Below are positions 37,572-45,364 of a stretch of 56,497 bases of DNA, piece after piece. Below the pieces are notes generated by a model. It ran no database searches. It saw only the letters and a program-made list of their open reading frames with translations, and was not told the DNA's origin. This stretch comes from Candidatus Thorarchaeota archaeon (GTDB taxonomy: Archaea; Asgardarchaeota; Thorarchaeia; Thorarchaeales; Thorarchaeaceae). How positions within the stretch are numbered: the stretch's first letter is position 1; each line of letters begins with the position of its first letter. A program made the translations under genes and the position numbers. Location: NCBI GenBank assembly GCA_048882965.1, contig JBHLRC010000003.1:1-56497 (forward strand), read 5' to 3'.

Positions 37572-37688
37572 TTAGACACCAATCTTAAGGTATCAGCCAT
37601 CTCTTTATCACTTGTTGGGTCGGAATTACAATACCTTAAATGCTTCAACACAAGAAATAGAACCGTAAGGCCAAGCTTGGTGGAACCA

Positions 37689-38354
37689 ATGGGTTTTCTG
37701 AGTGGTAAGAAAAAAGTTGACGCAGAACGCGGAATCCTTGAAATGAAGGGTACAATGAATGCATTGACCTTAAGGGTTCGTAGACTTGAAACTAGGATGC
37801 TCGAGGAACAAAAGGCTGCAAGAGAAGCTATGTCAAAAGATAATCGTTCTCTAGCCCGTTCTCATCTTAGTATCGTAGTTGATCTTGAAAATCGAAGAAG
37901 TCGTTACCAACAGCAGTTTCTTACACTTGAAACTGCTCTACTGAACTTGGAGGAGGCAAAGACACAAGCAGAAGTTCTCCGCGCTTTCACCATCGCGAAT
38001 GATGCACTTACTGAAGCCCGTTCAATGCTGAAACCAGAAGAAATCCAAACTCAATTGGATAAGCTTTCGGAATCGTTTGAACACATATCCATAGCTGGAG
38101 AGCTCCTCTCTGAGGATTTATCCGGTGCTGATTCGACTATCGAAGATGAGGAACGGATTGACCGCCAGTTAGAGGCAATGGAGGCTGAAGTATTACTGGA
38201 GAAAGAGGGAGTGCTGCCTCCACTTGAAACAGAAGGAAAAACTCCTGCGAAAACCACCGAAGAAAAAACATCTGACGAGAAGCGAATTGATGAACTACTC
38301 GCAGACTTAGAGAAAGAAGCACGTGAAGAAAGAGCCAAGGAACGAGAAAGTTAG
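37689..38354 (+). CDS. Snf7-family ESCRT-III protein
   Basis: Short N-terminal MGFLSGKKK, basic helical hairpin, LETALLNLEEAK...VLRAF...ANDAL, acidic C-half, terminal IDELLADLEKE helix. Confidence 0.85.
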   Translation: MGFLSGKKKVDAERGILEMKGTMNALTLRVRRLETRMLEEQKAAREAMSKDNRSLARSHLSIVVDLENRRSRYQQQFLTLETALLNLEEAKTQAEVLRAFTIANDALTEARSMLKPEEIQTQLDKLSESFEHISIAGELLSEDLSGADSTIEDEERIDRQLEAMEAEVLLEKEGVLPPLETEGKTPAKTTEEKTSDEKRIDELLADLEKEAREERAKERES

Positions 38355-41500: not shown

Positions 41501-42697
41501 ATGGGCGAGCTAAAAAGGACGACTTTACCATTCACTTCATTGGTTGGAATTGAAAAACTAAAGCTAGCCCTGATTTTAAATGGTATAAATCCACAGATTG
41601 GAGGAGTTCTGATATCCGGACCGAAGGGTACTGGAAAAACAACTGTTGTCCGGGCTCTAGCAGATTTATTGCCTGAGGTGGATGTAGTTGTTGGATGCAG
41701 ATTTGGCTGTAATCCCCACAATCATGATTTTCTATGCGCTGATTGTAGAAGTATTGTCGAATCTGGGAAGAAACTGAAATCTGAAAAACGAAAGATGAGA
41801 GTTGTGAATCTACCACTCTCAACAACTGAAGATAGGCTAATTGGCGCACTTGATATTGAGCGTGTTCTGAAAGATGGAATTCAAGCATTGCGACCAGGAA
41901 TTCTCGCAGAAGCTCATCAGAATGTTTTGTATGTTGATGAAGTTAATCTTCTTCCAGACCATCTTGTTGATGATTTACTTGATGCCGCAGCAACCAAAAT
42001 CAACGTCATTGAACGTGAGGGAATCTCAGTATCTCACCCGTCTGATTTTGTACTCATTGGAACTATGAATCCTGAGGAAGGTGAACTGAGACCGCAACTC
42101 TTGGATAGATTTCCACTTCATGTTGCAGTTGGAACCCATCATTCAATTGAGGATAGAATGCAACTGGTCCGGAGGAATCTCTCTTTTGAGGAGGATCCAG
42201 ATAAGTTCAGAGAAAGTTGGGCACCACAGCAATCTGAACTCCGAGAACGTATTATACAAGCAAAGGATCTTCTTGATGATATAGTGCTTCCCGATGAAAA
42301 ACTTAGAGCCATTGCGATGGCATGTGATGCTCTAGAAGTCGATGGAGTCCGACCAGACATCATAATCAGCAAAGCCGCAATTACAAATGCTGCACTTGAG
42401 GGTCGGAAACAGGTCACACTCGAAGACATGAAACTTGCTTCACAACTTGTTCTTAGTCACAGAACTCGTCGTGGGGGTCTCTTGGAACCACCTGCACCTG
42501 ATGATATTGATCAAGCGATAACAAAAGCCGCAGAGGTGGCACAGAAAACCGAACGTCGTAAGTCTCCAACTGAGATTCCAGAGGACGAGGAAGATGACAA
42601 AAAAGGTCCTCGAGTGAGTGGAGGAAGGTTTGGTAGAGGGTCCAAATTTGCAGCTGGAGGAAAACAGGAAGGCAAAAAAAAACTCCGGAAGGAGTGA
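41501..42697 (+). CDS. ChlI/BchI-like chelatase AAA+ ATPase
   Basis: [53 protein letters not shown]. Confidence 0.95.
42674..42695 (+). other. A9 slippery run plus ACTCC-GGAA-GGAGT mini-hairpin; candidate -1 frameshift site
   Basis: Nine consecutive A (42674-42682); the -1 frame has no stop between this run and the vWA ORF. Confidence 0.55.
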
Positions 42698-44172
42698 GAA
42701 ATCCTCGTGGTGATCCCATCAAAGGGACTATCTGTGCAATCATGATGGTAATTGGTTTCATCTGGTTTGCTTGGATTTATGTTAGTCCAATCAATTGGTT
42801 ATTTGGTACAGAAATCTTACAGTTTCCTACAATCCCGGCTCTGATTATTGATACAATCGTTATTGCACCTGTGATCTACCTCCTTGTGCGAAAATGGCTT
42901 GATGTCATGACACGTAGAAAGAGTGGGCCCGCTGCAGGTATTGACACGGTTGAACCTGGTGGAGGACGACCTGAGCCTGGTGATGAGTGGGGGCTCGCTA
43001 CACGTCCTTATACCCCTCAAACTCCTGAGATGATTTCTGGGTCTAAATCTGATATTAGAGAGGCACCGTTCGGACTAGATGATGGATTTTTTGTCAAGAT
43101 GCCTGACATTGATGCTGGTGAAGCATTATTTGACTTAGAAAAGCTCCACAAGAGAGCGATGATTCGTGCACGAGTTTCATCAGGTGGATGGATTAAGAAG
43201 CGGGTGAGCTCCAGATCGATGGGATCTTTACAATCATCAGATACGATGAAGCATGGTAGACCTGTTCGCTCCAGAATACCCTCCGGTGAAATTGGGAGCA
43301 TTCATATTCCGTCCACAATAATGGCTGCGATTGCACGAACCGGGCGGACTGATGGTACTCCAATCAAGATAATACCCGAGGATATCAGAGAGAGTGTTTT
43401 TACTGGCAGAACACCACTCACAATCATACTTGTAATTGATGTGAGTTTATCAATGAAGGGAAGCATGGAGCAGGTTCGAGAATTTCTTGAAAGACTAGAG
43501 AGTGAAACTCGTGGATCTAAAGATCGAACTGGAATCGTTGCATTCAAAGACAGTGGCGCTGTAGAAATTCAAGCTCCAACAACTAATTGGAACAAGATAT
43601 ATCGTGCATTAGGCCGACTCAGAATCTCAGGATTGACCCCTCTTGCAGAAGCTGTGAAGAAGTCACTTGAAACTATAAAGAGGGAACGAATGCGAAATGA
43701 CGACATTGAACCACTTCTTATTCTTATTTCTGACTTTTCTCCAAACATTCCGCTTGCTCAATCTGTTGGACCCGGTCATTACAGATACACTCCGGTTCAG
43801 GATTTAGTAAAGACAGCTAGACTAGTTCGAAAAGCGAAAGTAAGACTAGCTGCTGTAAATGTGGACCCTGAGCAATCTAAATGGTCCAAATTTCTCAAAA
43901 GGCCATACCATGAAGCACTCGAGCTTGCTGCTATGTTGAGAATGAAGAAAGAAGGTTTACACGATCCAATCGAAACAATCCTCAAAGTGGAAGAGTTTCG
44001 AAAGACTTTCGGAGCATATCTTATAGCTCGTGCTGCAAGTGGGCGAGCGTATCTCTCTCGTGAATTGATGAAGGAGCCCTCCATTCTTGGCAAATTACTT
44101 AGTTCAAGTTTATCGCGCAGTCGCCTTCGAGAAGAAGACCTCCGTCAAGTCGAAGTCTATCTCCCTCAATAA
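42694..44172 (+). CDS. ChlD-C-terminal-like vWA protein with N-terminal transmembrane hairpin
   Basis: Two hydrophobic segments, then [11 protein letters not shown]...EDIRE, MIDAS DVSLSM, GLTPLA, ILISD. GTGA overlap with the upstream stop. Confidence 0.9.
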
Positions 44173-44356
44173 GTTTGTAAACCTATGCCCCTCTCGATTA
44201 TGTTATTAGTATGCACTCATTTTCTGACACGCGCACTTGTTCCGATAAATGCCTCATGTCATAGTGAGCGAGGAGAGCCCAGTAATGGGTACAATGAATC
44301 GTCTTTTCATGCATCAGGCACAGGATCAGTGCGCACCTACCGAGGTGGTTATCGGG

Positions 44357-45364
44357 ATGCTACCAGGAAAAGTTCCACCAGAGATCCTTCAGAAAATTGT
44401 ATTTGAAAAGTTAGGTGTTAAAGATCCTGATGTACTACTAGGTCCAAAACTTGGAGAGGACGCAGCTGTTATTCGAATCGGTGATAAGGTCATTATTGCT
44501 GCAACAGATCCTGTCACAGGTTCAGTATCTGATATTGGTTGGCTTGCTGTCCATGTGAACGCTAATGACATTGCTACTTTTGGAGTTCAACCAAGATGGT
44601 TCCTAGTATCAATTATTCTCCCAATCAAATTCAAACCCGCCCAATTACAGCAGATTGTACAACAGATAGATGAGGCATGTCAAAACTTGGGAATTGCAGT
44701 CACTGGTGGTCATTCCGAAGTGACAGAGGGCATCAATCGTCCAATTGTTACAGGTTTCATGATGGGTATCGCTGAAGATGGAGCTTACGTTACATCGTCA
44801 GGGGCAAAACCCGGTGATTCGATAGTAGTAACAAAGTCTGTTGCTATTGAAGGTACTGCGATTCTAGCTACTGAAGGAGAACAGAATCTTGCAAAGAAAA
44901 TACATACCAAAACAATCCAGCATGCAAAAAACCTGAGAACTCAAATCAGTGTTGTGAATGATGGACTGATAGCATTTGGAACTGGTCACGTGACAGCGAT
45001 GCATGATCCCACAGAAGGTGGATTAGCAGGTGGACTACACGAGATTTGTGATGCAAGTAATGCTGGTTTTGAAATATATAGTGATGCAATTCCAATAGAT
45101 GATTCAACTTCTGTAATTTGTAATGAATTAGAGATTAATCCGTTGGAATTGATTAGTAGTGGCTGTATGATAATCTGTTGTGATACTGAAAACGTTAACG
45201 AGGTTGTAAGTACTCTCCAGTTAAAAGGCGTTACAGCCACAATAATTGGTGAGATCGTAGACAACCCAGAAAGAAGAATTATGATAAATGATTCCGATAG
45301 CACTCATCTAAATCGTCCTAGTACTGACGCACTATGGGATGCTTTGCGAAAAATTACATCATGA
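44357..45364 (+). CDS. AIR synthase-related protein (HypE/ThiL/PurM superfamily)
   Basis: GEDAA, TDPVTG, NANDIA, GGHSEV, MHDPTEGG, LISSG; ATG 44357 after GAGGTGG. Confidence 0.9.
   Translation: MLPGKVPPEILQKIVFEKLGVKDPDVLLGPKLGEDAAVIRIGDKVIIAATDPVTGSVSDIGWLAVHVNANDIATFGVQPRWFLVSIILPIKFKPAQLQQIVQQIDEACQNLGIAVTGGHSEVTEGINRPIVTGFMMGIAEDGAYVTSSGAKPGDSIVVTKSVAIEGTAILATEGEQNLAKKIHTKTIQHAKNLRTQISVVNDGLIAFGTGHVTAMHDPTEGGLAGGLHEICDASNAGFEIYSDAIPIDDSTSVICNELEINPLELISSGCMIICCDTENVNEVVSTLQLKGVTATIIGEIVDNPERRIMINDSDSTHLNRPSTDALWDALRKITS

Follow-up and report, generated by a model that had tools for sequence, protein, structure and literature searches.

A candidate frameshifted chlD-type gene with a conserved poly-A junction and a predicted membrane hairpin in Thorarchaeota

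Two overlapping reading frames at a run of nine adenines

The window analyzed here is a stretch of 56,497 nucleotides (nt) from a Candidatus Thorarchaeota archaeon (NCBI GenBank assembly GCA_048882965.1, contig JBHLRC010000003.1, positions 1 to 56,497 of the forward strand). On its forward strand lie two overlapping open reading frames (ORFs) that very probably make up a single recoded gene of the kind known as frameshifted chlD (fs-chlD) in this Asgard genome. ORF1 (41501..42697) encodes a ChlI-type AAA+ ATPase of 398 amino acids (aa), the short soluble product of standard decoding. The -1 frame holds ORF2 (42694..44172; 492 aa), whose product has a predicted membrane hairpin, a linker and a ChlD-type von Willebrand factor A (vWA) domain. 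The 3' end of ORF1 reads GGC AAA AAA AAA CTC CGG AAG GAG TGA: a run of nine A's, the putative slippery site (A9; 42674..42682), is followed four codons later by the 0-frame stop TGA (42695..42697), which the GTG of ORF2 overlaps. The -1 frame is open from 37 nt upstream of the A9 run, across the run and into ORF2, and one extra A or a -1 slip would turn the two frames into a read-through product of 890 aa. An initial annotation of this DNA had noted the ORF1 ending, the A9 run and the open -1 frame, and had put the AAA-linker-vWA product of a shift at about 890 aa; translation of the window agrees on each point.

The same annotation had pointed out that an A10 in the DNA would make this one continuous gene. 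Three DNA runs have Logan contigs that span the A9 run with no gap and no other letter: X1 and X2, which may be the source sample, and X4, from the same study as X2. Such contigs drop rare variants, so that minority run-length alleles are invisible in them. A fourth run, X5, covers only 42300-42461 and not the A9 run. Hence, the contigs show A9 and not one continuous gene.

ORF1 is closest to the chelatase ATPases. It matches the NCBIfam model TIGR02030 (BchI-ChlI) with an E value of 5e-114 and the ChlI structure 8osf in the PDB with 2.5e-95, and its AAA+ module is 43-45% identical to ChlI/BchI. The AAA+ part of an orthologue model superposes on BchI/ChlI with target-normalized TM-scores of 0.87-0.92. 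The Walker A motif (41618..41641; ORF1 residues 40-47, from the translation) is conserved, with G40, K42, G43, T44, G45 and K46 invariant across 11 fused homologues. We rejected assignment to the MoxR clade: the best ORF1 matches are all ChlI/BchI, and the MoxR-type matches fall below their cut-offs (bpMoxR, 22.8 bits against 27; AAA_3, 18.9 against 27). In the host genome, ORF1 is the sole ChlI-like match. The AAA+ module also carries a cluster of four cysteines spaced C-x3-C-x8-C-x2-C (41696..41746; ORF1 residues 66-82). None of C66, C70, C79 and C82 varies among the 11 fused homologues, which come from four Asgard families, and the cyanobacterial ChlI stretch aligned to the cluster has no cysteine. 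Judged by this pattern, the cluster may be a metal site, either for zinc or for redox chemistry.

The vWA domain of ORF2 (43423..43875; ORF2 residues 244-394 by Pfam VWA) contains the D-x-S-x-S signature of a metal ion-dependent adhesion site (MIDAS). It matches Pfam VWA_2 and VWA with E values of 2.7e-12 and 4.5e-9 and BchD (2x31) with 6e-4, and ORF2 also matches TIGR02031. All 11 fused homologues keep the MIDAS residues D648, S650 and S652, with T714 and D746 (orthologue numbering), unchanged. No Pfam match to the AAPxQ domain PF26791, which the soluble relatives P0015, P0017 and P0018 carry, was obtained for ORF2. The fused-type model TIGR02442, of 641 positions, is split between the two frames: ORF1 covers positions 2-347 and ORF2 covers 398-619. 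Because of this split, we take ORF1 and ORF2 to be the two halves of a ChlD-type protein.

Between the AAA+ and vWA parts the initial annotation had placed a two-helix transmembrane hairpin, and both hydropathy and a structure model back it. The predicted helices lie at 42727..42789 (ORF2 residues about 12-32) and 42829..42891 (about 46-66). Their 19-residue Kyte-Doolittle means peak at 2.22 (residues 12-30) and 2.42 (residues 47-65), and no mean exceeds 1.4 past residue 90 of ORF2. The protein folded was a natural in-frame orthologue of 891 aa (locus L019), with an alignment of 103 rows made up of 11 fused proteins and 46 of the 51 available ORF1/ORF2 pairs; the pairs from L018, L029, L048, L050 and L059 were left out. 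The model has a mean pLDDT (predicted local distance difference test score) of 74.9. Its AAA+ module is confident, and a disordered linker spans 354-405. Two long helices follow at 407-435 and 446-473 (pLDDT 81-91); after a further stretch of disorder (475-538) comes a vWA domain that is extended by helices at its C-terminus. The hairpin is flanked on its two outer sides by stretches rich in Lys and Arg, and the short loop that joins the helices carries almost no charge. Because of these basic flanks, the positive-inside rule predicts that the AAA+ and vWA domains should both face the cytoplasm.

Conservation of the junction and the reading of ORF2

We searched 400 genomes of the phylum and found an orthologue in 71 of the 85 other genomes of the host's family (f1). 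From the species genomes of this family, which are metagenome assemblies, 68 loci were collected, of which 64 span the junction (L009, L013, L024 and L061 fall short); frame relations were read from tblastn searches with both halves together with a junction census. Both ORFs are intact and 56-97% identical across 16 genera, with a common junction. The A-run at that junction is at least nine long in 62 of the 64 loci and at least eight long in 63. Fifty-seven loci are in the -1 configuration, with A9 in 45, A10 in 8, A11 in 3 and A7 in 1. In all 57 the -1 frame opens at or before -18 nt, and none has a -1-frame stop between the run and ORF2; the 0-frame stop overlaps codon 1 of ORF2 at the same offset in 51. 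The initial annotation had proposed to check the conservation of the A-run and frame offset in orthologues, and had named lack of the A-run, or a -1-frame stop ahead of the GTG, as findings that would speak for simple translational coupling. The run and the offset are instead kept in most of the family, and the stop is absent from every -1 locus.

The remaining seven loci differ in frame. Five (L019, L028, L044, L047 and L057) are in frame, with A10 in four and A11 in one. In each, the run is one base longer than in the nearest relatives, and they encode intact fusions of about 882-889 aa, counted from the chosen start codon. Two more are in the +1 configuration: L015, which has lost a G ahead of its A9, and L039, with A8. 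The single A7 locus, L031 (G363:C37:96030-99080), has its run interrupted as A5-G-A3, and its 0-frame TAA is immediately preceded by an in-phase A7, which may be a relocated, shorter slip site.

One-base changes of this sort raise the alternative of phase variation in the DNA, in which run length would change during replication and a population would hold in-frame and out-of-frame subpopulations. Such changes do recur, in five in-frame and two +1 loci of the 64 in family f1 and in a second family, f18, where three loci of seven are in frame and four are in the -1 configuration. However, 57 of 64 species genomes, assembled independently of one another, have -1 as the majority state in the assembly, and A9 is the only state in the contigs from three DNA runs, even if these drop rare variants. 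Phase variation could also act together with slippage and not instead of it; as the explanation of the junction we consider it improbable.

The run stands out from its surroundings at the level of bases. Outside it, lysine is encoded in the two ORFs by 1,248 AAA and 1,735 AAG codons (42% AAA), and the two ORFs of the 64 loci contain no other A-run of at least eight (A6 occurs 21 times and A7 four times). The host genome (3.54 Mb) has 13 A or T runs of at least nine, compared with about 56 expected for independent bases, and only the A9 described here sits deep between long open frames, which extend for 397 codons on its upstream side and 498 on its downstream side. These comparisons indicate that the run is under selection for its bases as such. 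As to the other long runs of the host genome, only one A9 (C15:35019-35027) falls inside an open frame of fair size, which extends 53 codons upstream and 129 downstream of it; the remaining 11 lie close to the starts of ORFs or within open frames that are short.

Could the junction simply be a decaying gene or a homopolymer assembly error, with no function? Homopolymers are error-prone, and three loci carry lesions (L004, L048 and the G388 locus). Against this stand the intact ORFs with their common junction across 16 genera, the purifying selection on the -1-frame codons, and the fact that an error would not recur at one offset in 57 assemblies. We regard decay or error as very unlikely. The lesions themselves, each either decay or an assembly fault, are the loss of about 283 nt from the AAA+ part of L004 (G002), a second frame break in the vWA part of L048 (G342), and an internal TAA in the vWA part of L059 (G388).

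The start of ORF2 bears most directly on how it is read. Across the 57 loci of the -1 configuration, codon 1 is ATA in 26, GTA in 15, GTG in 10, ATT in 4, and GTT and GTC in 1 each; in 43 of the 57, the open -1 frame has no ATG, GTG or TTG before +45 nt. About 16 (15-17) codons nevertheless precede the usual first ATG and encode the conserved stretch [VI]RNPxG[DN]PIKGTICA[IV] (42697..42741 in the window). These codons vary mainly at the third positions of the -1 frame, with entropies of 0.60, 0.34 and 1.50 at positions 1, 2 and 3 over the 64 loci. Because the pre-ATG codons are conserved and lie beyond the 0-frame stop, ribosomes coming from upstream must, on this evidence, decode them in the -1 frame.

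These observations also serve to weigh the alternative of two ordinary genes, by which ORF2 would be translated alone, through GTGA coupling or from Met17, as a vWA partner like those of the MoxR/vWA pairs. Two-gene AAA+/vWA systems are common (PMC9976466), and databases list ORF2 as a protein of its own. In the window the GTG overlaps the TGA, GTG is codon 1 in 10 of the 57 loci, and some start lies at or before +12 nt in 14. The 43 loci with no canonical start before +45 nt, together with their conserved upstream codons, mean that simple coupling fails to explain ORF2. Two ordinary genes would, moreover, give no reason to keep a run of 9-11 A's in 62 of 64 loci when AAG is the commoner lysine codon, and would leave unexplained both the run indels that give intact in-frame fusions in five lineages and the single fused genes of three other families. 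From the distribution of start codons, coupling appears possible in the host genome but cannot be the mechanism of the family as a whole. We consider two ordinary genes quite improbable.

Homologues outside the family agree with a single gene. Three other Asgard families have in-frame AAA-TM-TM-vWA genes (where TM is a transmembrane helix) of 858-892 aa with no A-run of at least eight. P0006, an 880-aa fused protein, is named ChlI/ChlD in its source. In family f18, the homologue has A10-A11 at the AAA+/linker boundary in all seven loci (L077 and L086-L091, from genomes G102, G105, G094, G110, G112, G109 and G107). L077, the sole f18 locus checked for hydrophobic segments, has none. Because this homologue has the run but not the helices, the poly-A device appears to be older than the membrane hairpin, or more recurrent.

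A protein scan of 1.84 billion representatives gave 1,408 matches at an E value of 1e-3 or below and 6 at 1e-30 or below; only P0020, P0022, P0023 and P0029 matched the hairpin/linker part. The best 150 matches include 34 long fused proteins that have a Walker A motif, and in 22 of these 34 the AAA+ module and the MIDAS are separated by hydrophobic segments. On that count, membrane-inserted ChlD-like proteins seem to form a sizeable unnamed group. In the ESM Atlas, we found only the gene's own Thorarchaeota cluster and generic vWA clusters. P0020 (477 aa) is a public gene call that begins at Met17, within the first hydrophobic helix.

A probable single recoded gene and the level of the slip

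We conclude that ORF1 and ORF2 very probably are one recoded gene, and the candidate frameshifted chlD of the initial annotation gains support from the conserved A-run and frame offset, the missing start codons and the A9 in the DNA. In its slip, level of slip, co-assembly, topology and client alike, the model that we infer is as follows. Standard decoding would yield the 398-aa soluble ChlI-type AAA+ ATPase, which ends four codons past the A9. A one-base slip on the A9, in which either RNA polymerase inserts one A too many or the ribosome shifts by -1 on A_AAA_AAA, would let translation continue in the -1 frame and give the 890-aa product: AAA+ module, disordered linker, two-helix membrane hairpin and MIDAS-bearing vWA domain. 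By analogy with ChlI/ChlD, the short and long products, which have the AAA+ module in common, should co-assemble into partly membrane-tethered rings. The efficiency of the slip would then set the ratio of soluble to anchored subunits.

Several observations weigh against this model or parts of it. Seven of the 64 loci deviate in frame, and these could be homopolymer assembly noise and not biology. Some start codon lies at or before +12 nt in 14 of the 57 loci; in the host and nine others, it is a GTG that overlaps the stop, and coupled initiation is possible in the host. Public gene calls start ORF2 at Met17 or name a separate "VWA domain-containing protein." The slip is deduced from comparative data and from E. 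coli tests of other chlD genes, and in the literature consulted we did not find archaeal RNA polymerase slippage on A-runs documented. The fused gene is the only ChlI-like match in three f12 genomes; because these have the fused gene alone, a separate soluble form does not appear to be universally required. Finally, the host genome is 93.75% complete with 6.21% contamination, and, in metagenome assemblies such as these, the gene absences described below are not proof. As to the public calls, they lack the long product because ORF2 is called from Met17 or as a stand-alone protein; split into an "ATPase" and a vWA protein, or shortened, the annotation misses it either way.

A purely translational mechanism, in which transcripts are faithful and ribosomes slip -1 on A_AAA_AAA or A_AAA_AAG, is a serious contender, though we place it somewhat short of an even chance. 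An in-phase A_AAA_AAA/G heptamer exists within every run of nine or more, whatever its phase. L031, where the long run is gone and an in-phase A7 abuts the stop, fits a ribosomal shift better than polymerase slippage. For the published cluster, the papers speak of ribosomal frameshifting on A_AAA_AAR (PMC5009743; PMC3711429), and -1 ribosomal frameshifting is given as the only unequivocal recoding of archaeal cellular genes besides stop-codon readthrough (PMC8037382). However, seven A's are enough for tandem tRNA slippage, and yet 9-11 are kept in 62 of the 64 loci. Under a strict -1 shift, the two +1 and five in-frame loci would give one product each. In E. coli reporters of other chlD sites, frameshifting was 10% for A7, 40% for A9 and 63% for A11 (PMC3711429); a rise in efficiency with run length is equally expected of polymerase slippage, so these values fit either mechanism.

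That no downstream stimulator is conserved here also weighs against a purely ribosomal shift. The initial annotation had drawn attention to a GNRA-capped hairpin, ACUCC-GGAA-GGAGU (42682..42695). The hairpin is present in the window, with a folding energy of -6.9 kcal/mol, but its role as a functional element found no support. The identical hairpin occurs in 8 of the 64 loci, all close relatives, and a different one in a single further locus (9 of 64 in all). Over the 45 nt past the run, the mean z-score is -1.0, and z falls below -2 in 9 of 64 loci. The usual spacer between slip site and stimulator is 5-9 nt, whereas this hairpin begins at the last A of the run. We therefore rejected the hairpin as a frameshift stimulator, given that a local hairpin occurs in only 9 of 64 loci, and the lack of a general folding signal downstream; it is probably incidental or lineage specific. 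No Rfam family matched within the window at gathering thresholds.

Relative to the 0 frame, the run has phase 1 in 41 of the 57 loci of the -1 configuration, phase 3 in 10 and phase 2 in 6. A homopolymer of about nine or more, kept at the level of bases with no required downstream structure, is one mark of a programmed transcriptional slippage site, and this is what the family has. Because the run is 9-11 A's long, its phase variable, conserved structure absent and mixed configurations tolerated, we lean slightly toward a transcriptional slip.

A bolder extension of the transcriptional reading is possible, though we hold it only tentatively and think it rather unlikely as a whole. The A9-A11 run would be a programmed transcriptional slippage site of the Asgard RNA polymerase, and its product a membrane-tethered ring that is not a tetrapyrrole chelatase and that performs an ancestral, pre-chelatase job of the ChlI/ChlD motor. 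Transcripts with n-1, n and n+1 A's would then supply both subunits from the -1, in-frame and +1 configurations alike. Sister species could drift between configurations because this transcript ladder would make each of them harmless. The mixed ring would be a remodeler, or a metal-insertion chaperone, for a membrane client.

Partners, function and relation to known systems

The initial annotation had found no cobN or chlH in the window and had suggested a search of the genome. CobN/ChlH (PF02514) was not found in the host or in any of the 86 family genomes, while 5 of 14 controls were positive. δ-Aminolevulinic acid dehydratase (ALAD), porphobilinogen deaminase (HemC) and CbiX were not found in the 93.75%-complete host genome either, and ALAD was found in one of the 86 family genomes, a genome that is 80% complete in 670 contigs. 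Because the family lacks CobN/ChlH and the tetrapyrrole pathway, tetrapyrrole metallation is unlikely, and the protein probably is not a tetrapyrrole chelatase; the earlier suggestion that it might not be one is thereby strengthened. By analogy with ChlI/ChlD and NorQ/NorD, an AAA+/vWA remodeler of a membrane-proximal client seems more likely: a mixed AAA+ ring whose vWA/MIDAS arms would engage a client near the membrane.

Neighboring genes did not point to a function. Wherever flanks were reached (30 loci, 1.5-kb flanks), the order thrC-like, AAA+, vWA, AIR-synthase-like, SurE was held; Pfam confirmed it in another genus, and two others agree in the order and sizes of their ORFs. The fused homologues of families f12 and f8 lack this order; their neighbors are an unknown 224-aa ORF, DUF4350/GIFT-like, Cdc48, DinB and Macro proteins, or Fer4 and CxxCxxCC proteins. 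We drew no functional link from the neighbors, the synteny with threonine synthase and AIR-synthase-like genes being confined to the family. The AIR-synthase-superfamily gene itself (44249-45364, forward strand) begins 77 nt past ORF2. It is below all NCBIfam cut-offs, with HypE, ThiL and SelD as best matches, and keeps its place in the checked loci of six genera. Elsewhere in the window, a Snf7/ESCRT-III family gene (37677-38354, forward strand; Pfam E value of 4.6e-13) is as expected for an Asgard genome.

The gene matters beyond its own family. Very few examples of recoding are on record for cellular genes of archaea, and here the putative slip site is kept family-wide. The family would offer a clean natural system for asking whether it is the archaeal RNA polymerase or the ribosome that slips. 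A membrane-tethered ChlI/ChlD motor with neither ChlH/CobN nor tetrapyrroles would, moreover, bear on the question, raised by Kuznetsov et al. in 2022 (PMC9227772), of what ChlI and ChlD do as a complex by themselves.

Of the known systems, the class I chelatases are the structural reference. Their linker is Pro-rich and acidic. The protein described here has the ChlI/BchI fold and, like BchD, a vWA domain with an intact MIDAS (PDB 1g8p, 8osf, 6l8d and 2x31). It differs in that ChlH/CobN is missing from 86 of 86 family genomes and ALAD from 85 of 86, in that a predicted membrane hairpin replaces the plain soluble linker, in that PF26791 was not detected, and in its invariant four-cysteine cluster.

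Pairs of AAA+ and vWA proteins include RavA/ViaA and CbbQ/CbbO, and BatA and BatB are membrane-anchored vWA proteins. As in MoxR pairs such as NorQ/NorD (PMC9976466), an AAA+ ring with a vWA/MIDAS adaptor would engage and remodel a client; the clients of such pairs are often membrane or metal-cofactor proteins, and some of the vWA partners are anchored in the membrane. Unlike in those pairs, the ATPase is of the ChlI clade, and recoding would join the adaptor to one copy of the ATPase, where the pairs use a separate gene.

Transcriptional slippage has bacterial precedents. The dnaX gene of Thermus thermophilus reportedly slips on an A9 during transcription. Like the slippage described for genes of insertion sequence (IS) elements (PMC1088944), the present case would yield two products with a common N-terminus from a homopolymer of about nine A's, with no required structure. 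In dnaX and the IS elements the polymerases are bacterial; the literature consulted gave no archaeal cellular example.

The closest relative is fs-chlD itself, and poly-A recoding of chlD-type genes, archaeal ones included, is already published. A "magnesium chelatase" cluster of frameshifted genes includes Methanocaldococcus and Methanococcus (PMC3711429), A_AAA_AAR is under purifying selection (PMC5009743), and fs-chlD genes also occur in genomes that lack cobN/chlH and the corresponding pathways, a "stage 1" of unknown function (PMC9227772). The host gene shows the four traits of fs-chlD: a ChlI-type ORF, a vWA part in another frame, an A-rich overlap and fused homologues. As in the published genes (PMC3711429, PMC5009743 and PMC9227772), a ChlI-like ORF is followed by a vWA part in the -1 frame across a poly-A overlap of 7-11 A's, in-frame fused homologues exist elsewhere, there are archaeal members, and some genomes lack cobN/chlH. 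Literature searches found neither a membrane-anchored ChlD-like protein nor a Thorarchaeota or Asgard chlD, which is not proof of absence in print, and the word "transmembrane" occurs 0 times in the available portion of PMC9227772. Two features were found in no paper and set this gene apart from the published archaeal members in Methanocaldococcus and Methanococcus: its lineage, Thorarchaeota within the Asgard archaea, and the predicted two-helix membrane hairpin directly after the slip site. In addition, unlike fs-chlD, the family holds all three frame configurations.

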